Shown: positions 3,896 to 46,205 of the stretch, piece after piece | Layout: each line of letters starts with the position of its first letter | Position numbering within the stretch: position 1 is the first letter of the stretch | Source of the DNA: Escherichia virus TH47 | Length of the DNA: 64,000 bases | Sequence record: MT446416.1 | Strand: one strand, 5' to 3' | The notes under the pieces: generated by a model | The model's input: only the letters and a program-made list of their open reading frames with translations | What the model was told of the DNA's origin: nothing | The model's database searches: none | Translations under genes and position numbers: made by a program

Positions 3896-4101
<206 letters not shown>

Positions 4102-4105
<4 letters not shown>

Positions 4106-4266
4106 ATTCGTACCAGTAGTTCAATTAAGTACATTTCATATGCTGGATCGTTGATAAGTTTATCATACAGATGTGACTCTGAAATGAATTCCCAATGATA
4201 TTTTCGCCATTTACCAAAACCTGCATATCTAAAATTAATGTCATTCATCCATTCTTCATGTGTCAT
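4102..4266 (-). CDS. small hypothetical protein, MTHEEWM paralog (54 aa)
   Basis: MTHEEWMNDINFRYAGFGKWRKYHWEF...LLVRI; ATGA overlap with both neighbours. Confidence 0.45.
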
Positions 4267-4427
4267 AATCGTACCATTATTTCAATAAAGAACCACGGAT
4301 ATACTTCATGGTTTATAAGTTTATCGTATTCTGCTGGGTCTGATATAATTTCCCAATGATATTTTCGCCAACTACCTATACCCGAATATCTAACATTAAT
4401 GTCATCCATCCATTCTTCATGTGTCAT
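4263..4427 (-). CDS. small hypothetical protein, MTHEEWM paralog (54 aa)
   Basis: MTHEEWMDDINVRYSGIGSWRKYHWEI...IMVRL; near-identical 5' nucleotide sequence to the two downstream copies. Confidence 0.45.
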   Translation of the reverse strand: MTHEEWMDDINVRYSGIGSWRKYHWEIISDPAEYDKLINHEVYPWFFIEIMVRL

Positions 4428-4465
4428 GGTTTTTAACCTTTAATTAAAATTGTCAAAAATGTATT

Positions 4466-5004
<539 letters not shown>

Positions 5005-5024
5005 ATCCTTAATATTATATTTTA

Positions 5025-5096
5025 TAAAGGGCCGGAGAATCGAACTCCGATTGGATTCTTAGAAGGAATCTGTTTTATCCATTAAACTAGCCCCTC
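5025..5096 (-). tRNA. tRNA-Arg (anticodon TCT)
   Basis: Acceptor GAGGGGC/GCCCTTT (two GU), D-stem GTTT/AAAC with GG in loop, anticodon stem GATTC/GAATC, loop CTTCTAA, T-stem CGGAG/CTCCG, T-loop TTCGATT; TGATATAAT element about 11 nt upstream. Confidence 0.7.
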
Positions 5097-5712
5097 AGTA
5101 CTAATAATTATATCACATCTTTGTGGTCTGTCCCAGAAATTGTGATATAAAAGTTGTTATTCTTGTGGTTTAGTTACACCAACACCAATAATGCTTTTAA
5201 TATCAATATGGATATTAGCAAGTTCATTACTGTCAAACGGGTTAGTTTCAGTTACAACAACAGTGGCATCATTAACTAAAACTACTGAACCTTTTACGCG
5301 GTATCCCTGAAGGAGTACTTGAACATTGTCACCAGCGTTTAATGAGTTAATAACTTCTAATAGGGTAGATTCCATTTTATATTCCTTACGGTTAACTATT
5401 TTTACGTTTTTCTGATTCTGGTACAGTTTTCATTTCACCAATACATAGTTCCATGATGAGTACACCTTTATCATTATAACGTACTACATCTTCAATGTCA
5501 AAATGTCTCGCACTATGAACAACTTCAATACATGCATCATCGGGATATGATTCCAATAATGCTACAAGTTCTGCTTTTGTCATTTGCCATCTCTCTGTTA
5601 TTTATCTTTAGTAATTATAGCATAAAAACACATCATGTCAAATGTTTTATCTTTATTTTAAGTGATACACAGTACTGAAAATATAATAAAGAAAAATTTC
5701 CAGTACTGAGTT

Positions 5713-9821: not shown

Positions 9822-11000
9822 AAATCAATTACTTACGGTTTGCTTTACGCAGTTCAGAAAGTTCTTCTTGTAGACTTTTCTTCCATGCAATTAGATGAGC
9901 AAAACGGATTGGCCTTGCACCAGTACCGTGGAATACTGCGAGAGCTTCTTCAGCTTGATGAATCTGGAACTGAATGTAGTTCACAGTGCGGTCGAAGTCG
10001 GTGATATCTAGTACTTGTGCCTTAGTTTCTTTAGCCATTTTAATACCCTTTTATTTCTTTTTTATGAAAAACCCTCATCATTGAGGAATGGTTTGCATTT
10101 TTACATCTGCCGATAATATACATTATATCATGCTTTTCAGCGTTGTCCCAAAAAATTAATTATTTTTTAGAACAAATTTCACAACTGGTAACTCTGTTTC
10201 GTTTGATTCGGATTCATTATATCCGTTCTTCGTGAGAACGTCAATAACTTTTTTAGAATCGATTGTAAATTTATCAAGTTCAGTATAACGATAATAATCA
10301 ATGGTCTGACTGAACTCATACTCACCTGGACGCTGACGGCAACATGTTTGTGTTTCTGACATAATTGCATTGATTAGATAATAAGATTCAGTACTATCAT
10401 TGTTTGGTACATAAATCTTACCATCAAAATGAATCACTTCATGCTTATTCATACAGTGAGTTAATCTCCGATTGAAGAATTGAAATAATTTCCTTTTGAA
10501 GACCTGTAATTTCACTGTTCAGTGAGGATAAACGTTTGGTCAATGCCATAAACTGTTTAGCGTCTTCTTTGGAACGGTCGTTACGAACTTTATCGGAACT
10601 CCAGTTAGCATATGATTGCTCATCTTTTTTGTTAAGAATGTCCCAGTCCAAACGGACTAGTTTTCGTTCTTTCTTAAGTTCGCTTAGGCGAGATTTCATT
10701 TCTTCTTTAGTCATTACAAGGTTCCTTTCATAAAGTCAGGGATAACGATTACGATAGAAGGATTATACTCCACATATCCATTCTTTGTCAATAGACTTTT
10801 GATATCAGAAATAACATTATCATGTTGTTCCATATCTTTATCGCAGTGAATTTCCAATTCTTTTAGGAAAGGTTGTTTAACTGAAATTGATTGGGTCAGT
10901 GTTTGAATACGCTGCATCATATCAATTGGATCAGGACTGAACTCATTACCAACATAAAGAGTGCCAGATGCATCCTTTTCAAGTAAGACTTCTAAAATTT

Positions 11001-12605: not shown

Positions 12606-13122
12606 TTGATTAATATAGGAGTATTATACATACTCCATTTTCATGTGTCAAGCTTTATAATACGGAAGACTTTTCACTAAAGATTCGGACGTATTATTTT
12701 TAACCCATGTACTACCGTTGTCATTGGATACATATCCAGTACCATTAACAAACTTACGCATAATACCAGTAAAAATGTTCGTATACACCATTATTCAGTA
12801 TCCTTCGGTTTAGAATGTAAACCATACTTTTCATCATAACGGTCATAAGTAGTACCATTCGTACTAGCTTTGATGCTTTCGGTACGATTGATTTGTTCAA
12901 TCTTCACACCACGATAACCAATCTCTTCTTTAAATTGTTCCCATGATTCACGTAGACTCATTTTAGTCCCCTTTTGTTATTTCATACACTCACGTAGAAC
13001 AATCTTTTCAACTGAACCACCGAGTACTAGATAGTGAAAATTAGAATCTTTGTTTGCCATATTCAAAAGATCTGCTTTCTGTTGAAGCGTAAAGCGTGAA
13101 GTACTGTTACGTACTGGCATAG

Positions 13123-23322: not shown

Positions 23323-23814
23323 TTACTCATTGTGGTTCTCCTTCAAAACAATTCTTATATCTTCGAATGTTTGAACAAACCAGTCATGCTCATCAGATAC
23401 ATCAACCACCTTCCCACCATAAACATAGTAATGATAGAAGGGTAACTTACTTTTCCTCAATCGTTCAGCAAGTTCTGGGTTTTGAAATATCTTAGCACAT
23501 ATTGCATCCTGGATACAAGAAATGCATTCGGGTGTCATTTCAATACGGTCGTGCATATACTTGTTCGCCGCTGCTTTTGCAGCAGCACCCGACACTTTTC
23601 TAAGATCATCATGTTTCTGGCCTGTTAAAAACCAAAAATAAAAAGTTTCTACCGATGGGAACCAACCGTATGGTTCTAAGGTAAAACTATGTGACGAAAA
23701 GTTAGATAGATCCCTACCTAACTTAGTTTTAGCTTTACTATAGATATTAATGTGTCTGTATCCGTCATCAGTAGGGTCAATATAGTTAAATGACTCTTCA
23801 GGAAATTCAAACAT
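23323..23814 (-). CDS. hypothetical protein
   Basis: 163-aa ORF. Confidence 0.35.
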   Translation of the reverse strand: MFEFPEESFNYIDPTDDGYRHINIYSKAKTKLGRDLSNFSSHSFTLEPYGWFPSVETFYFWFLTGQKHDDLRKVSGAAAKAAANKYMHDRIEMTPECISCIQDAICAKIFQNPELAERLRKSKLPFYHYYVYGGKVVDVSDEHDWFVQTFEDIRIVLKENHNE

Positions 23815-25375
23815 AATTACTCTTCTTCACCAGATGGTGTACCACGCAGTTTATCAAAATCAACCCAAATACCATGCTGGTTTTTGAAGCGACATTTCTC
23901 ATAGTACCAGCTATAGTCGGTTTCAACACCCTGAGAAATTGAACGAACACTACAGTCATACATATTGTATAAATGTGTACGTACAATGAATGTTCCTATA
24001 AGAAGAACAAACACAACAATCCCAGTACAGATCTTTGGATGATCCATAATTAGGTCCAACACAGAACTGGTTTCAGTACTATCAATTTTACTACGACCGA
24101 TAGCAACAACTTTCAGTACTGCTAATGATACCAGTAATGAAATAACAAGAACACTCAAATAAATTAGCATATTTAGACTCCTACCCCAAAACGTAAAAGG
24201 ATGTTATTAACAAACACAAAATCAAATGGAGACTTTGGTTCAGATACCGAGTACTGAAAAGTTTCAGTGGCAAAATTTTCCCTATTATGCCATGTTGATG
24301 AATCGATTAGTAATTGTTTATCACCAATTGACGTTGAATGTAATGGGACGTGTGCTGATGAATTTATAGAATACGCATTTAGTTTTCCTTGTTCATCAAA
24401 TGTAACACAAAGGTAATATCTCTTCTTAACATCAGGATAACGCTCTTTAATATACGAATATATTGATTCATTCAAATCATCATCATCCCTTGTCTTAGCA
24501 CCGAGAACTTGAGCAAAAGACAAACTACGTTTCGGTTGGATCGTTCCTGGTCTTTTTAGAATGAATTCTTTTGTTAAGTAAAAGTTATTGTGTTTTACCT
24601 CAATATTAACAGTTTTAAAGTTTGTGATTTTATCATATACGTTCCTAAAAACTGTTATATCCCATGAACTAATTTCTTGCATCGTTACCGTAACTAGTTC
24701 TTCTAGTTCTTGGATAAATGGCAAATCGTCTTGATCAAATCTAATCACAGTTTTCATATACCTTTTTTAAATTCATAATTTCAAGAAGACTATATTCTTT
24801 TTCACTAATCAAATCTTCAGTGAGTGCTTCTGGTTCGGTGTTACAATACAACTTCCCATTAATGATAACATAACCATTGCTAAGATACAACGCACTCATT
24901 ATCTGTTGTCCTTCTTTTGCATTGACTGCTATACCAGCATTTGTTACAACAAGCCCATTGTTTGCAAATGCTGATGTTAGTTCTGACCATTCAACTGATA
25001 TTAAATCACGATAGTCTTTTGATACTTTTATATTAACAATACAAGCAACTCTTGTAATAGATGGAGTACTAATCGTATACATCTGTGGGTGTTGGTAGTT
25101 TGAGTTATATGTTTGTGGTGTATTAACAGCAGTTCCTGAATTCGGAGTTGTTGGCATAATTACTTGATCCATATTTGGAACAGCCGTTCTTAGTGATGCA
25201 ATACGCCCAGTTTCATCCAATTTCAAAACTAAACGATGAGTTTTATCCTCAGAGTGATACGGGAATAGACCACCGGAATTCATATTTTGAAGCATTTTAA
25301 TTAATTCATAAGTATTTTTTAAAAACATAATAAATCCTATAGAAAATGAGAGTACAATGTACTCCCAGATTTAGA

Positions 25376-25930
25376 TTATAGTTTAATTACTTCTTGGATA
25401 CCAGTATCCATTGCTTTCTTAGTGCGTGTATCAGAAACTACTGTACATAAATGTTCAATATTTTCACTTGGGAATGTGTTAGTATCAAGAATTTTGGAGT
25501 TCCAGAAACCTTTACGGAACTTAGCATAATCAGTACACTGGTCAATTTTCATTTTCTGAAGATTGTTGAACTGTGTACGTCCTGACTCGATAGTTACCAT
25601 AAGTTCTTGATAAATCTTAGGATCGAGATTAGGAACCTGTTGTTGAATCTGTGACATCACAAACTTCTGGTCAACACCTTCACGACCTTTAAAGTATGTT
25701 TCGATGGTTTCTTTCAATGCATCCTTATACTTATCAGAAACTTGTACTTTTTCTTGAATGACAAGAGTGTATTTACTTAGTTGGCTTTCTGATGCATCAT
25801 AGTACTTTTTAATATTACCTTCAAATTCAACAGCACGGTCATGTGCATCTACATACATACTAACTGAACCAATTGCCATAAGACCGAATACAACAACAAC
25901 ACCAATCAATGCAATAATTTTACCATTCAT
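25376..25930 (-). CDS. membrane-anchored protein, possibly LemA-like
   Basis: 184 aa; N-terminal TM helix; C-terminal R..FN...F...FW...FP pattern resembles LemA; weak. Confidence 0.35.
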   Translation of the reverse strand: MNGKIIALIGVVVVFGLMAIGSVSMYVDAHDRAVEFEGNIKKYYDASESQLSKYTLVIQEKVQVSDKYKDALKETIETYFKGREGVDQKFVMSQIQQQVPNLDPKIYQELMVTIESGRTQFNNLQKMKIDQCTDYAKFRKGFWNSKILDTNTFPSENIEHLCTVVSDTRTKKAMDTGIQEVIKL

Positions 25931-27021
25931 AACTTGTTATCCCTCATATAAAGGCCAATGAAAATAGATACAATCAGTAACAAAATAGAAGCACCGATGA
26001 GAACATCTTTACGTGGTTCCATTTTTACAGACAAGTACTCGAACTCTTTGTTAGAGAGTCTTTCAAACTTTGTGTCAATATTATGCACTTCTTTGGTCAG
26101 TAAGTCAAGAGTTAATTTTTCATTTAATGCATCCATTCGCATCTTAGCATGTAGTTCTTCATTCTTCATACCTTGTGCAAATGATGTGCTATCAAATTTA
26201 ACGATCTTCCCATCAGCATCAATACCAAAGAACATGATAACATCATTCTTCTTACCACCACGCCACGATGCGAGTGTTGCTTCCACAAAATCTACGTTTT
26301 TATAATCATAAACCAAAACTTGGATGTTTACTTGTTTACGTGCACCCATAGTTTTTAGTTCTTCACGCAGATACTCATCATAACCATCTACATTATAATT
26401 AGTAGTGTTGATTACATGGTGTGTTTTATAATAGTCTACCACACTTGGGTATTCTGGTAAAGTACTAAGATATTTCTCATCATACATTTCATGTAATTCA
26501 CCAGGACTAAACAATGAGTTTTTATCAGCGAACAGATAGTTAATATAAGAACTTTCTGCGGCGGCATAATCCCCAATGTTAACCTGTTGCCAGCGGGGAG
26601 GGGTCATTGTACCCTGGCGGTTTACTCGCTCAATCTCAAACTTCCCTACAGTACTTTTTACATACCAGTCAACTTCGTATGAATAATCAAATACCTTATA
26701 GGACTCACATTCACGATGGGATTTCCCCTTACTATCATAACGAGTTCTGCATTTCTCGTGCCACGTGTAATGCTTACATGAGCTTGATTGTGTACAAAAC
26801 TCCTTGTGATTATATTTGGATGTTACCTGCCCATTTAGAATCTCTACATCGTACAATTGGCTGTAGTTGATTGCATATGAGATACCAAGCACAAGAGCAG
26901 CACCAACTATACAACAACCAATATGAATCAACAGTTCTTTAGTACTGATATGCTTATCATACATGTATTTCATAACAAATACAACGATAAGTGAAGGAAT
27001 CAACAGAATAATAAAATTCAT
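25927..27021 (-). CDS. hypothetical membrane protein (TM helices at both ends)
   Basis: 364 aa; hydrophobic N-terminal ~50 aa and C-terminal ~20 aa, Cys-rich central region; start overlaps stop of 25376-25930 gene. Confidence 0.4.
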   Translation of the reverse strand: MNFIILLIPSLIVVFVMKYMYDKHISTKELLIHIGCCIVGAALVLGISYAINYSQLYDVEILNGQVTSKYNHKEFCTQSSSCKHYTWHEKCRTRYDSKGKSHRECESYKVFDYSYEVDWYVKSTVGKFEIERVNRQGTMTPPRWQQVNIGDYAAAESSYINYLFADKNSLFSPGELHEMYDEKYLSTLPEYPSVVDYYKTHHVINTTNYNVDGYDEYLREELKTMGARKQVNIQVLVYDYKNVDFVEATLASWRGGKKNDVIMFFGIDADGKIVKFDSTSFAQGMKNEELHAKMRMDALNEKLTLDLLTKEVHNIDTKFERLSNKEFEYLSVKMEPRKDVLIGASILLLIVSIFIGLYMRDNKL

Positions 27022-27024
27022 GTA

Positions 27025-27714
27025 TTAGTCCAGTTTAAGTTTATTGAGACAATAGGAGATTTGGATAGCTTCACGTGCTGCATCATACAGAGGGTGATGT
27101 AATTCCAAACCATTAATACCACATTTTTCTACATACTTCACGAATTTAGCTAACTGCACTGACACAATCTCATCCATTTCGGTGCGAGCTTCTTCATTCA
27201 ATAAACGCTTCAGGGTTCGTGCGTTTTCAGGAGCATCATATTTCCACAAATCACCAACATTCAATAGTTTTAAGTGATTAGCTTGTAAAATACTACAGTC
27301 GAAGTTGCAGCCATTTCCCCAAATTGAATGTTCAACCTCTTTACCATAACAATCAAAACGGATATCTTTCCAGAAATCGACAATAGCATTAGAAGTAAAG
27401 ATTTGTTTGGATTTACCATTAGGACCGTACAATTCTGGTGCAACAAGTGCCATAGTACTGGCAACTTCAGCATATGCATTAGGATATTCCTTCTGACATG
27501 TATTCATCCAGAAATCCATTGCACCTGCATCTGATTTCAGCCCAGCGTTGACTTGTGCTTGGTATGGTAACTTAACATATACAAATTGTCTGATATCATG
27601 TTCAGGTTTACTTGGAACAACTACTGCTGCATAATTTGGAATAATAATATCATAACCAGAGTTTTCAGGAGTACCGAGAGCTTCGATATCAACACTAACA
27701 TGACGGCGTTTCAT
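27025..27714 (-). CDS. dexA: DnaQ-like 3'-5' exonuclease (T4 DexA-like)
   Basis: 229 aa; Exo I-like VDIEALGT (D-x-E) and Exo III-like HHPLYDA; size matches T4 DexA. Confidence 0.55.
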   Translation of the reverse strand: MKRRHVSVDIEALGTPENSGYDIIIPNYAAVVVPSKPEHDIRQFVYVKLPYQAQVNAGLKSDAGAMDFWMNTCQKEYPNAYAEVASTMALVAPELYGPNGKSKQIFTSNAIVDFWKDIRFDCYGKEVEHSIWGNGCNFDCSILQANHLKLLNVGDLWKYDAPENARTLKRLLNEEARTEMDEIVSVQLAKFVKYVEKCGINGLELHHPLYDAAREAIQISYCLNKLKLD

Positions 27715-27795
27715 ATTTCGTTCCTTATCTGTATATTAAAAAAGAGTGCGTTTCAATAAGAACATTATATTGAAAACGCACTCTTGTGTCAACTA

Positions 27796-28938
27796 TTACT
27801 TGTTAGCTTTTTCAGCAATTTCACGAAGAGTATCTTCGAGTTCATGAGAGAGTTTTGCGATTTCAATCTTAGCACGCTCACGCTCTTCTTTACCTTTCTT
27901 CTCTTCAATCAGTACTGCTTCGATACTATCGATCATTGTTTTATGTACATTACGCAATGTTTTAATATCCACGATACCACGATTATTTGCTTTAGCAGCA
28001 TCCAACATGTTAGTTGCTACCATTTTAGAGTTTACTTCGAGTAAACGGTTAGTTTCATTGTCAATCAGATTACCCAACTCATTGTCTTTACGTTGACGTT
28101 CGGAAATCAACTGTTCAGCCAATTGTGATTTCCATGCTGGAATAACAACTGATTTCAAATCCTCAAACTTAGAAACAGTGTTGAGGTTTACTTTCTTCAT
28201 ACTCATCAGGCGAGGACCACTCAGTTCACACATCATGATAAGACGACGAATCTTATCTTCCTGCTTAGAAAGAGCTTCACAAATCATCTTTTGCTCCTGG
28301 ATTGCAAAAGAATCAACGTCAGGGTTCGCTTGCATTGCTACCAATTCAGCATCTTGTGCTTTGGTAACTTCTTCCAACTCAACTAACGTATCACGCAGTT
28401 CAAAGAGATAGTTTTTGTTTTCGTTGTAAGCAGTGTCTAGCCATGCACATTCCCCATGCTGGCGGTTAATACCAACCTGAAGAGTGTTCATGATTTCATC
28501 AATTTGTTCTTTACTGTTTTTGTACTGATCGCCAACTTTCTGTTTAGCATTAACAAAGAGTTTTTTGACCCAGCCTACGATTGATTTATCATCCTGTAGA
28601 CTATCAATATCAACTGCACGTGTCAATGTCAAGATAGTAGTAATAGACTTACCGAATTCGGTATTATCATCAGTGACGTTAACTTTTGACATGATTTCAT
28701 CAGCCAAACGTCCTACACCTGCCCCAGCAGTGGTTCCGATGGTATTAATATTCTGCACAGTTAAAGCCATACTGTTACCTTTGGTATCTTTCAGTACTGG
28801 AAGTGACTTGGACTGTTGTTCGAAGATATCAGTTGCGTCAATTGTGTGTGCTGCTGTTTTGGTAGTACGTTTGGCAGTTTTGGTTGCTTTGGCTTGTTTA
28901 ACTGTTGCTTTTTTCGGATTGATTTCTTTCTCGGACAT
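27796..28938 (-). CDS. hypothetical coiled-coil protein
   Basis: ORF to 29013 uses TTG in track; likely ATG start at 28938 preceded by GAGGA; helical with charged C-terminus. Confidence 0.4.
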   Translation of the reverse strand: MSEKEINPKKATVKQAKATKTAKRTTKTAAHTIDATDIFEQQSKSLPVLKDTKGNSMALTVQNINTIGTTAGAGVGRLADEIMSKVNVTDDNTEFGKSITTILTLTRAVDIDSLQDDKSIVGWVKKLFVNAKQKVGDQYKNSKEQIDEIMNTLQVGINRQHGECAWLDTAYNENKNYLFELRDTLVELEEVTKAQDAELVAMQANPDVDSFAIQEQKMICEALSKQEDKIRRLIMMCELSGPRLMSMKKVNLNTVSKFEDLKSVVIPAWKSQLAEQLISERQRKDNELGNLIDNETNRLLEVNSKMVATNMLDAAKANNRGIVDIKTLRNVHKTMIDSIEAVLIEEKKGKEERERAKIEIAKLSHELEDTLREIAEKANK

Positions 28939-29020
28939 TGTGTATTCCTCAGTTAATTTAAGATAGTGTTGCTCAGTGATAAACATTCTACAGGCAACAC
29001 TCAGTACTGTCAACTACTTT

Positions 29021-30148
29021 TTACTCTTTATTTCCATACGCCAGGTTACGAATGATATTGGCAGTATCTTCATCAACTGCTTTACCAGTTTGAGCTTGCA
29101 AACGGCCTATGATCAATGGGATAGTGATAGTTTGAATATCAATCATTCGGCTCATATCAATCTGATACTGCTTACTAACACCAACAATACTAGTTTCAGT
29201 CATTGCTGTTGAAATCCCCATTTTCATAATACGTTCAAGCGTCAGTTCATATTCAAATGGATCTTCCAAACGACGAATTGCATATTCACACCCAATCTTA
29301 CCATACTCAAGTTCATTTTTGATTTCACGAACTTCATCACGAATTTCAGTGAATAAAGTCGTAATACCACTAAACTTATTCGTATCGTACTTCACTGCTT
29401 CATTCAATGCTTTCATTACTTTTGGTAAATCAGTTGGCTGTACTTTGATATCAGCTTTCCCAAACAACTTCTGTGTAAATGTAGGCTTCAAAGGGAATAA
29501 CTTTTCCAGTGCTGTTGTAAGGTTACCCATTAATAAACGGATATAATCACTATGCTGCTGTAATGCTGCGTTTAAATCCAACTGACGCTCGGAGATCTTC
29601 TGAATCTTCACACCAACTTCTTGTGCACATACTGGTAGGTTTACATACCAATCCAGAACCTTCACCGGATCTTTTTTAATTGTATCTGGAAAATCCATCC
29701 AACGTTCAATGTCAGCAACCATATCACATTCAGGGTCGATAGGTTTCTTCTTAAGAACAATCGGAGCCGGAACTTCTGGTGAAGTAGCTACTGCTGCCAT
29801 GTTTGGACGAAGTTTACCTTCCTTCCAGTCTCGGTACTCCTTCTCTAACGGAGGAATTGGGAGATCTGGAACGATTCTCACATTTGAGAAATGAATTTTA
29901 TCTTTCATTAAATCCATTACCTTCAAACGGCGATTATCAAAATAGATCTCGTCAAGTGAAAGTGAACGTGTGTCGAAATGTGGATTTCCCAGTGAATCGT
30001 ATGTTCTGTCCACAACAATGGTATACATATATTTTCGATTCGATGAACGGTCATACTGTTTTAACAGTGAGTTAAGAACGTAGTTGAAGTTAAATTCTTT
30101 GATTTCGACTTCTTTACCGTTGTCAATGAAAAAATATTTTCCTTTCAT
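29021..30148 (-). CDS. hypothetical protein
   Basis: 375-aa ORF. Confidence 0.4.
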   Translation of the reverse strand: MKGKYFFIDNGKEVEIKEFNFNYVLNSLLKQYDRSSNRKYMYTIVVDRTYDSLGNPHFDTRSLSLDEIYFDNRRLKVMDLMKDKIHFSNVRIVPDLPIPPLEKEYRDWKEGKLRPNMAAVATSPEVPAPIVLKKKPIDPECDMVADIERWMDFPDTIKKDPVKVLDWYVNLPVCAQEVGVKIQKISERQLDLNAALQQHSDYIRLLMGNLTTALEKLFPLKPTFTQKLFGKADIKVQPTDLPKVMKALNEAVKYDTNKFSGITTLFTEIRDEVREIKNELEYGKIGCEYAIRRLEDPFEYELTLERIMKMGISTAMTETSIVGVSKQYQIDMSRMIDIQTITIPLIIGRLQAQTGKAVDEDTANIIRNLAYGNKE

Positions 30149-45918: not shown

Positions 45919-46205
45919 GTAATAAAAGCTCCGATATGGTTTTAATGTTCAATTCGATAGTAATTATAGCTAAGAACTAATGTTCTGTCAAGCACTATCA
46001 TTATGTTTTTTAATTGCTTCACAGATTGCTTGAACTTGCACTAGATAAGTTTTAGCAAACTCTGCTTGAGTACGCACACGTGGATTTGGTGCGTCTTTGA
46101 TCATAAGTTCTAAGTCATAAACTACTTTATCGAAAACACCCTTGTCTTCAATAATACGATCATAAAAGGTTTTGTCAGTCATGTCAAGAACTCCATGTGG
46201 TTAAA

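Follow-up and report, generated by a model that had tools for sequence, protein, structure and literature searches.

Why would a bacteriophage carry its own version of two membrane-protein genes that have relatives in cellular bacteria? This question is raised by two overlapping genes in a stretch of 64,000 nucleotides (nt) from Escherichia virus TH47 (sequence record MT446416.1), which as a whole is called the window in the following. The genes are named p364 and p184 after the lengths of their products in amino acids (aa). An earlier note, made from the sequence alone, had described the products as a LemA-like protein and a larger membrane protein possibly of the TPM or DUF2207 type, and had proposed an envelope-associated takeover or exclusion module. 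LemA-family and TPM-domain genes also occur side by side in cellular bacterial genomes; the "LemA" of the Pseudomonas literature is an old name of GacS and is unrelated. We found that p364 and p184 form an obligate two-gene cassette of phages, and that the guess of a LemA and a TPM protein was right at the superfamily and fold level, as judged from family profiles and a structural model.

A strongly conserved pair of overlapping genes

The region shares 98.9% identity with Escherichia phage Turkey3 and about 81% with PBECO4/121Q, and the window can therefore be attributed to an Asteriusvirus-like jumbo coliphage with a genome of 350-385 kb. The two overlapping minus-strand open reading frames (ORFs) of 184 and 364 aa described before were recovered at the same positions (Table 1). 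They share the four nucleotides ATGA, which contain both the TGA stop codon of p364 and the ATG start codon of p184, and a Shine-Dalgarno-like GAGGGA motif is situated about 10 nt upstream of this start codon. In comparisons with the PHROG database, p184 was assigned to phrog_1383 (E=2e-65) and p364 to phrog_2087 (E=1e-134), and hundreds of homologues were found for each. Both genes are under strong purifying selection: relative to the PBECO4 orthologues, the ratios of nonsynonymous to synonymous substitution rates (dN/dS) were 0.035 for p364 and 0.069 for p184, which are among the lowest values of eleven neighbouring genes. Because of the PHROG matches, the many homologues and the low dN/dS values, p184 and p364 are real genes and not chance ORFs.

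Homologues of p184 or p364 were broken into two to three pieces in tblastn searches in the records of Escherichia phage CMSTMSU (MH494197.1, 219801-220351) and Salmonella phage 38 (KR296692.1, 1699-3375). Truncated proteins are annotated in these records, e.g. the 113-aa fragment P0016. The splits are probably sequencing frameshifts and not real pseudogenes.

The soluble domain of p184 is related to LemA

The N-terminal anchoring of the 184-aa protein that had been proposed was confirmed by hydropathy analysis, which revealed a single transmembrane (TM) segment at residues 5-23, and exactly one TM segment was present in 137 of 140 family members. A HMMER search with a profile of close homologues (A1) retrieved 752 cluster representatives, all about 180-200 aa long, and 140 of these were used for a broader alignment and profile (A3). 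As a control that guards against contamination with cellular LemA proteins, an additional profile (A4) was built from 43 proteins that are encoded directly beside a p364-like gene on phage contigs. When the A3 profile was compared with the sequences in the PDB, the LemA crystal structure 2ETD was found with an E-value of 4.7e-8, followed by the next match at 0.25. The alignment extends from residue 30 to 160 of the query and from 9 to 156 of the chain, and thus covers nearly the whole soluble domain. The phage-only profile A4 yielded 2ETD as the sole significant match (E=9.2e-5, next 0.096) and in the same register, whereas no LemA chain was recovered with the close-homologue profile A1. LemA was also the only recurrent Pfam family among the A3 members (23 of 140, best E=2.9e-6; at most two members for any other family), and 8 of the 43 A4 members matched it individually, although weakly.

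The resemblance includes the general architecture. Proteins of the LemA family (PF04011), to which MamQ and the Thermotoga maritima protein TM0961 (2ETD) belong, have a short N-terminus, one TM segment and a helical domain of about 160 aa in a total length of about 185-200 aa, as does p184. The C-terminal Y...F-P signature region is kept in the p184 family, with near-invariant Y135 and P154; the predicted extracytoplasmic orientation is common to both; and, as for LemA, the p184 gene is paired with a TPM-domain gene. The differences are that p184 itself remains below every Pfam and NCBIfam threshold, that its family constitutes a large clade of its own comprising the 752 representatives and filed as PHROG 1383, that a clade-specific cysteine pair (Cys132-Cys162) exists in about a third of the members, and that the p184-like gene follows the TPM-like gene and has almost only virulent phages as its carriers. 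Judged from these profile comparisons, p184 appears to be a member of the LemA superfamily, in a distinct and mostly phage-borne family below current Pfam thresholds. The LemA-like C-terminal pattern noted earlier was thus recovered with family profiles, which reach 2ETD, but not with p184 alone.

The GenBank names of the p184 orthologue differ between records, i.e. "LEMA protein" in some and "virion structural protein" in others. The latter name is the annotation of phrog_1383, is repeated in many records, among them those of Vi01_204, PBECO4 gp436, Ea35-70 and Acinetobacter phages, and would make p184 a structural component of the particle that is possibly injected with the DNA. We consider this extremely unlikely. 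The phAPEC6 protein gp143c is 89% identical to p184, and the main text of the phAPEC6 study, including its table of 62 virion proteins identified by mass spectrometry, does not contain gp143 (PMC7247149). Mass spectrometric data for Erwinia phages were derived from crude lysates (PMC6690015), and mass spectrometric studies of Vi01-like virions do not name the pair and flag low-count membrane proteins as likely contaminants (PMC10892097, PMC3121705). The TM anchor, an obligate partner with three TM helices, the distance from structural modules and the early-type promoter upstream also argue against a virion protein. The origin of the label could not be traced, and we regard it as unsupported and probably spread by annotation transfer.

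p364 combines a predicted TPM domain with a beta-rich domain

For p364, AlphaFold2 (AF2) produced a confident model, with a predicted local distance difference test (pLDDT) score of 92.2 and a predicted template modelling (pTM) score of 0.80. The earlier note had placed TM helices at both ends of the larger protein. Helices were indeed found at both ends by hydropathy analysis and in the model, but they are three in number and two of them are N-terminal. Between residues 203 and 333 the model contains alternating helices and strands, and the top Foldseek matches in the PDB were all TPM domains, i.e. 3PVH (probability 0.97), 8C7I, 9H70, 2KPT, 2KW7, 5ANP and 7TBR. The proteins in question are AtTLP18.3 (probability 0.97), Psb32, LMTP1, cg2496, PG_0361, BA41 and Rhom172_1776, and the target TM-scores were 0.44-0.55 for six of the seven and 0.25 for 8C7I (Psb32). 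Among the predicted viral structures of BFVD, p364 matched a protein named "TPM domain-containing protein" in UniProt over about 325 columns (E=1.3e-19, TM-scores 0.62/0.70), together with two phage proteins labelled COG1512. TPM_phosphatase was the top Pfam family among the p364 relatives, albeit weakly (4 of 54, best E=1.6e-3). A search of PDB sequences with the p364-family profile (A2) found nothing. Since sequences vary greatly within the TPM family, its members are recognised by fold, namely a central beta-sheet of four strands with flanking amphipathic helices; a divalent-metal site or phosphatase activity has been reported for some members but is not common to the whole family (bioRxiv 10.1101/2024.10.28.620569). 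On the basis of the model, we assign the C-terminal alpha/beta domain of p364 to the TPM fold. Of the two families that had been suggested for the larger protein, only TPM is therefore retained; DUF2207 (PF09972) was matched neither by p364 (E<=1) nor by any of the 54 relatives (E<=0.05).

Like the TPM proteins (PF04536/COG1512) TLP18.3, Psb32, LMTP1, MOLO-1, BA41/BA42 and E. coli YgcG, p364 has a TPM-fold domain followed by a TM anchor, and its charge distribution favours an extracytoplasmic location, which is that of the characterised members. It differs from them by an N-terminal TM hairpin in place of a signal peptide, by a beta-rich, cysteine-containing insertion of about 100 aa before the TPM domain, by a W-x-G-G-K-K-N-D motif that is specific to the p364 family, and by the lack of a Pfam TPM match for p364 itself.

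The inserted domain had been described as a Cys-rich central domain, which is correct for the four clustered cysteines at positions 76, 82, 91 and 105. The protein has only six cysteines in total, and the other two (36 and 37) are located within the second TM helix (TM2). The p364 relatives have a median of 7 cysteines per whole protein and 2-10 in the central domain, and the Cys columns of the beta-rich domain are kept in 36-51 of 54 relatives. Most relatives exhibit a C-x(n)-C-x-C...C-x2-C pattern of 5-7 cysteines in the region of residues 57-160, which could represent a metal site rather than only disulfides. Very long hairpins are predicted for this domain, e.g. with a strand from residue 57 to 75. 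A Foldseek comparison of the domain with the PDB gave no convincing fold match, with a weak likeness to the RBM3/collar of the FliF MS-ring (probability about 0.3) and to OB-fold proteins.

Predicted orientation in the membrane

The distribution of positively charged residues was used to predict the orientation of the two proteins. In the p364 family, the mean numbers of Lys plus Arg are 0.06 at the N-terminus, 1.89 in the loop between the first and second TM helices, 0.7 just after TM2, and 2.87 in the C-terminal tail. According to the positive-inside rule, the central domains of p364 would therefore be periplasmic. In the p184 family, the short N-terminus has a mean of 1.42 Lys plus Arg, and the stretch after the TM segment is net acidic.

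The cysteines of the p184 family point in the same direction. The soluble domain has zero or two of them, the number being even in 122 of 140 members and odd in 18, and when present they always occupy the same two columns, corresponding to C132 and C162 in p184. They are gained and lost together, which is the pattern of a disulfide and, hence, of an oxidising compartment. The C-terminal domain of LemA/MamQ proteins is predicted to be extracytoplasmic (PMC3905215), and those TPM proteins that have been characterised are located in a lumen or outside the cell (bioRxiv 10.1101/2024.10.28.620569). From these patterns we infer that the soluble domains of both p184 and p364 are probably periplasmic and that a Cys132-Cys162 disulfide is formed in p184.

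The two genes form an obligate cassette

The distributions of the two families were analysed with tblastn against phage genomes. Homologues were present in 485 phage records for p364 and in 482 for p184, with almost identical host breakdowns, so that about 480 of 50,697 sequenced phage genomes (about 1%) carry the LemA/TPM pair. The carriers include Vi01-like Ackermannviridae, RaK2/121Q/GAP32-like jumbo phages, Aeromonas T4-like phages, several T5-like phages and ICP1, and further Erwinia, Xanthomonas, Sinorhizobium and Acinetobacter phages as well as Lak megaphages. T5 itself does not have the cassette. In Vi01, ICP1 and the T5-like phage VPG01, the next gene after the p364-like gene is the p184-like one.

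For a systematic view of the gene neighbourhoods, 80 viral loci from IMG/VR and 26 loci from contigs of prokaryotic genomes were sampled. The p184-like gene was found immediately downstream on the same strand in 79 of the 80 viral loci, with a median gap of 16 nt, and the sole exception was a contig that ends at that point. Same-strand adjacency was observed in 18 of the 26 genome loci. Clustering of all neighbouring ORFs did not reveal a third conserved gene across 40 lineages. Other recurrent neighbour clusters in these lineages turned out to be antisense ORFs inside the p184 and p364 genes and were rejected as partners. The TelA-like gene, the exonuclease gene and the p375 gene, which precede the pair in the window, were also rejected as general partners, since they co-occur with it only in the RaK2/121Q-like lineage (14 of 80 loci). 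Taken together, p184 and p364 are an obligate two-gene cassette.

The lineage identity matrices of p184 and p364 are congruent and cut across phage taxonomy; for example, the copies of Vibrio T5-like phages are nearer to those of Aeromonas T4-like phages and ICP1 than to those of other T5-like phages. Because of this congruence, the sequence comparisons suggest that the pair has been transferred as a unit between phages of related hosts.

In ICP1 isolate 2017_DRC_55 the cassette (3989-5582 of the locus analysed) sits between the legacy genes gp30 and gp41. As the genes of this block are without the notes "previously called GPxx", the reference genome of ICP1 may lack the block or have it annotated differently, and the block thus may be a variable region.

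Only 26 loci were found in a set of prokaryotic genomes with one genome for each of 185,579 species, and these were mostly on contigs of metagenome-assembled genomes (MAGs). The non-viral matches were often on contigs binned to MAGs of the candidate phyla radiation (CPR)/Patescibacteria, i.e. Saccharibacteria, Kaiserbacteria, Uhrbacteria, Peribacteria, Gracilibacteria and SR1, and the p364-like ORFs at these loci are longer. They could be mis-binned phage contigs, or genuine copies carried by phages that infect CPR bacteria. A phage-type p364/p184 cassette is also present in the cultured bacterium Achromobacter anxifer LMG 26857 (487-kb contig NZ_CAHLAR010000005.1; 5956-7687 of the locus analysed), where it immediately follows a RecA-like gene (phrog_97, E=5e-89). 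Seven other ORFs around it were scanned without a match to a PHROG family, and the cassette may belong to the chromosome and not to a prophage.

Predicted early transcription, and its bearing on lysis and exclusion

In the window, p364 and p184 are preceded by an exonuclease gene, exo229, and the three genes are flanked by a perfect sigma70-type promoter and a terminator-like hairpin (Table 1). Seven perfect promoters (TTGACA-N16-18-TATAAT) exist in the window, all on the coding strand, compared with 0.25 expected by chance. For this reason they look real, and transcription by the host RNA polymerase, probably early in infection, is likely. Correspondingly, the consensus host promoter suggests that the exo229-p364-p184 operon is expressed early.

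The timing bears on the possibility that the pair acts in lysis, as an antiholin, a lysis-inhibition protein or a spanin-like effector. The name of the p364 homologue Vi01_203, "host lysis protein", would fit such a role, and an N-terminal TM segment, a helical periplasmic domain and conserved cysteines give p184 a layout superficially like that of i-spanins and antiholins. One p364 relative matched a holin Pfam family at noise level (E=0.046). Against this, the predicted promoter is of the early host sigma70 type and not late, and the homology is to LemA and TPM, not to holin or spanin families. Among the neighbours annotated in the records of Ecwhy_1, fEgEco12, PBECO4, Vi01, ICP1 and VPG01, none was noted as a lysis gene, and no gene for a holin, an endolysin or an outer-membrane lipoprotein is conserved beside the pair across the 40 lineages. 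The Vi01 label could not be traced to any evidence. A function in lysis is, thus, very unlikely.

Exclusion of competing phages is close to what the earlier note had proposed. A periplasm-facing complex made early could keep secondary phages from penetrating the cell wall or from passing their DNA into the cell, in the manner of Imm and Sp of T4. These T4 proteins are small, early, inner-membrane or periplasm-facing superinfection-exclusion proteins, and the predicted inner-membrane site, the periplasmic domains and the predicted early sigma70 promoter of the pair correspond to the layout of known exclusion proteins. The variable genomic contexts of the pair are those of accessory genes, and its horizontal movement between unrelated phages that share host groups, exemplified by the closeness of the Vibrio T5-like copy to the Aeromonas T4-like copies, suggests an interaction with host-specific envelope components. 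The likeness to Imm and Sp is a functional analogy only, between proteins that large virulent phages make early and that sit in the inner membrane or face the periplasm; neither sequence nor fold is similar, and the LemA/TPM pair differs in its much larger size, its homologues in cells and its strong conservation. Exclusion genes tend to be sporadic and fast-evolving, whereas the pair is under strong purifying selection and was kept in all three unrelated lineages that were sampled in detail, i.e. the RaK2/121Q-like phages, the Ackermannviridae and the Aeromonas T4-like phages. A PADLOC scan yielded no known defence or exclusion match, with nothing for p364 and a noise-level match of p184 to a retron reverse transcriptase (E=0.0036, 14.7 bits). 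Furthermore, a homologous pair exists in cells outside any phage context, which speaks for a membrane function of a more general kind. The strong purifying selection and the near-universal retention across phage families fit a general role in infection physiology somewhat better than an arms-race exclusion gene, and we regard exclusion as unlikely, although with an appreciable chance.

A possible role in the host envelope

On balance, we consider it somewhat more likely than not that p364 and p184 represent the LemA/TPM membrane-protein pair of bacteria in a strongly diverged form carried by phages, made early as a periplasm-facing complex and serving envelope homeostasis. p184 would be bitopic in the inner membrane, with its LemA-like helical domain facing the periplasm and stapled by the Cys132-Cys162 disulfide. 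p364 would be anchored by its N-terminal TM hairpin and its C-terminal TM helix, and would expose the beta-rich and the TPM-fold domains to the periplasm. Translationally coupled through the ATGA overlap and inherited together, the two proteins would most likely form a heteromeric complex in the inner membrane. Their expression would start early, from an operon that is presumed to run from the consensus sigma70 promoter through the exoribonuclease gene, p364 and p184 to an intrinsic terminator.

The more specific proposal, that this complex preserves or adjusts the function of the host envelope during infection, is tentative, and we see it as possible but doubtful. The complex might keep the cytoplasmic membrane and the periplasm of the host intact and energised through the long cycle of large virulent phages, and the pair would then be the phage's own copy of a cellular membrane-homeostasis module, neither a virion part nor a lysis protein. 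An envelope role is proposed because of the predicted early expression, the periplasm-facing topology, the constraint, the family-wide retention, the adjacent TelA-like gene and the cellular relatives. MamQ, which is described as the only LemA-family member tied to a process, is required for magnetosome membrane formation (PMC4902198), and TPM proteins are extracytoplasmic accessory factors of membrane complexes, for example in photosystem II repair and assembly and at the acetylcholine receptor (bioRxiv 10.1101/2024.10.28.620569). In Flavobacterium columnare, membrane stress induces a cellular lemA gene and a TPM gene together with an extracytoplasmic function (ECF) sigma factor (PMC13236525).

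Several observations weigh against this interpretation. When the individual sequences were used, LemA (PF04011) was not matched by p184 and TPM (PF04536) was not matched by p364, even at E<=1, so that neither reached the Pfam gathering threshold, and an NCBIfam scan found nothing for either protein. The E-values of the TPM matches of p364 in the PDB were about 1e-2, with none at or below 1e-3. The AF2 model of p184 is all-helical and has only moderate confidence (pLDDT 72.5), and in the Foldseek comparison of this model with the PDB 2ETD ranked 21st and was not significant (E=1.3, probability 0.72), although it had the best root-mean-square deviation (6.6 A), target TM-score (0.48) and identity (18%) among the helical matches. 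The parity of the cysteines in the p364 family, 24 even and 30 odd, does not have the regularity of the p184 family. Scanning for promoters upstream of the copies in Vi01 and VPG01 gave nothing above chance, so that early expression is proposed for the present phage only, and the linkage to the TelA-like gene is narrow, being confined to the 14 RaK2/121Q-like loci. The membrane-homeostasis function is drawn by analogy from poorly understood cellular relatives, as the molecular function of the LemA and TPM families is itself unknown (PMC4902198; bioRxiv 10.1101/2024.10.28.620569). A search of the literature yielded neither experimental work on members of the two phage families nor a relevant functional study linking LemA and TPM to phages.

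By analogy with MamQ and its role in magnetosome membrane invagination, it is also conceivable that the pair is a minimal machine, sufficient in itself, that remodels membranes or forms rings and by which the inner membrane of the host is reshaped or compartmentalised early in infection. For example, invaginations or a scaffold in the periplasm might then serve replication, assembly or energy supply in large virulent phages. An oligomeric ring is conceivable because the long beta-hairpins of p364 weakly match the FliF ring/collar. We regard such a machine as distinctly unlikely and retain the diverged LemA/TPM pair with a function in envelope homeostasis as the preferred interpretation.

Neighbouring genes

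The features of the locus are summarised in Table 1. exo229 shares the promoter and terminator with the pair, an arrangement confined to the RaK2/121Q-like lineage; in public records, it is variously named "peptidase", "metallopeptidase" or "DNA polymerase III subunit epsilon". The TelA-like gene further upstream has a promoter of its own, and the mechanically assigned start of its ORF (TTG at 29013) overlaps with this promoter. Therefore, the gene probably begins with the ATG at 28938, in agreement with GenBank (380 aa). Three genes downstream of the pair, a small predicted membrane protein of the phrog_8041 family is encoded, which is under fairly strong constraint. The most constrained gene of the neighbourhood encodes a 163-aa protein of phrog_652, for which a Pfam scan gave no match.

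Table 1. Positions of p364, p184 and neighbouring features in the window.
Feature	Position	Strand	Basis and remarks
p364	25927-27021	minus	ORF, 364 aa; three-TM membrane protein with beta-rich Cys-containing domain and predicted TPM-fold domain
p364 N-terminal TM hairpin, residues 3-21 and 30-48	26878-27015	minus	hydropathy; AF2 helices 2-20, 27-54
p364 beta-rich domain, residues ~57-160, Cys 76/82/91/105	26542-26853	minus	AF2 strands 57-75, 85-95, 101-111, 115-123, 126-130, 152-160
p364 TPM-fold alpha/beta domain (predicted), residues ~200-335	26017-26424	minus	Foldseek; boundaries inferred from AF2 secondary structure
p364 motif W253-x-G-G256-K-K-N-D260, near-invariant in family	26242-26259	minus	family alignment
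p364 C-terminal TM helix, residues 340-358, then short basic tail	25948-26004	minus	hydropathy; AF2 helix 338-361
p364 stop (TGA)/p184 start (ATG) overlap, ATGA	25927-25930	minus	sequence; translational coupling inferred
p184	25376-25930	minus	ORF, 184 aa; N-terminally anchored, predicted divergent LemA-superfamily protein
p184 TM anchor, residues 5-23	25862-25918	minus	hydropathy score 2.78
p184 LemA-like helical domain (predicted), residues ~30-160, Cys132/Cys162 pair	25451-25843	minus	register of 2ETD alignment; all-helical AF2 model
Terminator-like hairpin and T-run	25347-25367	minus	9 nt past p184 stop; 9-bp stem, 4 GC pairs, T-rich tail; pattern match only
exo229, Rv2179c-like DEDD 3'-5' exoribonuclease gene, first in operon	27025-27714	minus	Pfam PF16473 E=3.4e-9; phrog_255 E=2.4e-32
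Perfect sigma70-type promoter (TTGACA-17 nt-TATAAT) upstream of exo229-p364-p184 operon	27764-27792	minus	12/12 match; promoter function inferred
Seven perfect promoters	362-389, 5473-5501, 5614-5641, 10762-10791, 12623-12651, 27764-27792, 45963-45991	minus	motif match
TelA-like "toxic anion resistance" gene	27796-29013	minus	Pfam E=1.8e-37; own 11/12 sigma70-like promoter 29013-28985
p375, 375-aa gene	29021-30148	minus	phrog_13312; own 11/12 sigma70-like promoter 30217-30189
Small predicted membrane protein, 117 aa	23817-24170	minus	phrog_8041; two or three hydrophobic segments; dN/dS 0.079
163-aa protein	23323-23814	minus	phrog_652; "NADAR domain-containing" in phage Turkey3; dN/dS 0.023

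Implications

The LemA label in some GenBank records and the TPM label on a related metagenomic protein in UniProt were already known. We did not find described elsewhere a rigorous support for the two assignments, the obligate pairing of the two genes in a mobile cassette that about 480 phages share, the additional beta-rich domain and the TM hairpin of p364, or the predicted periplasmic topology. In public records the genes of the pair are mostly "hypothetical" or, probably wrongly, "virion structural protein", and these labels can be corrected to LemA-like membrane protein for PHROG 1383 and to TPM-fold membrane protein for PHROG 2087. The seven likely early promoters could serve as a guide to the early transcription units of the window.

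LemA and TPM are very widespread membrane-associated families of unknown molecular function. The results point to an envelope-directed function that is evidently needed by large virulent phages of Gram-negative bacteria, and the cassette offers a compact two-gene system in tractable models, i.e. CBA120/Vi01-like phages and ICP1, in which LemA-TPM pairs can be studied. If the view of a membrane-remodelling machine were true, the pair would provide the first tractable handle on the function of these two bacterial families.

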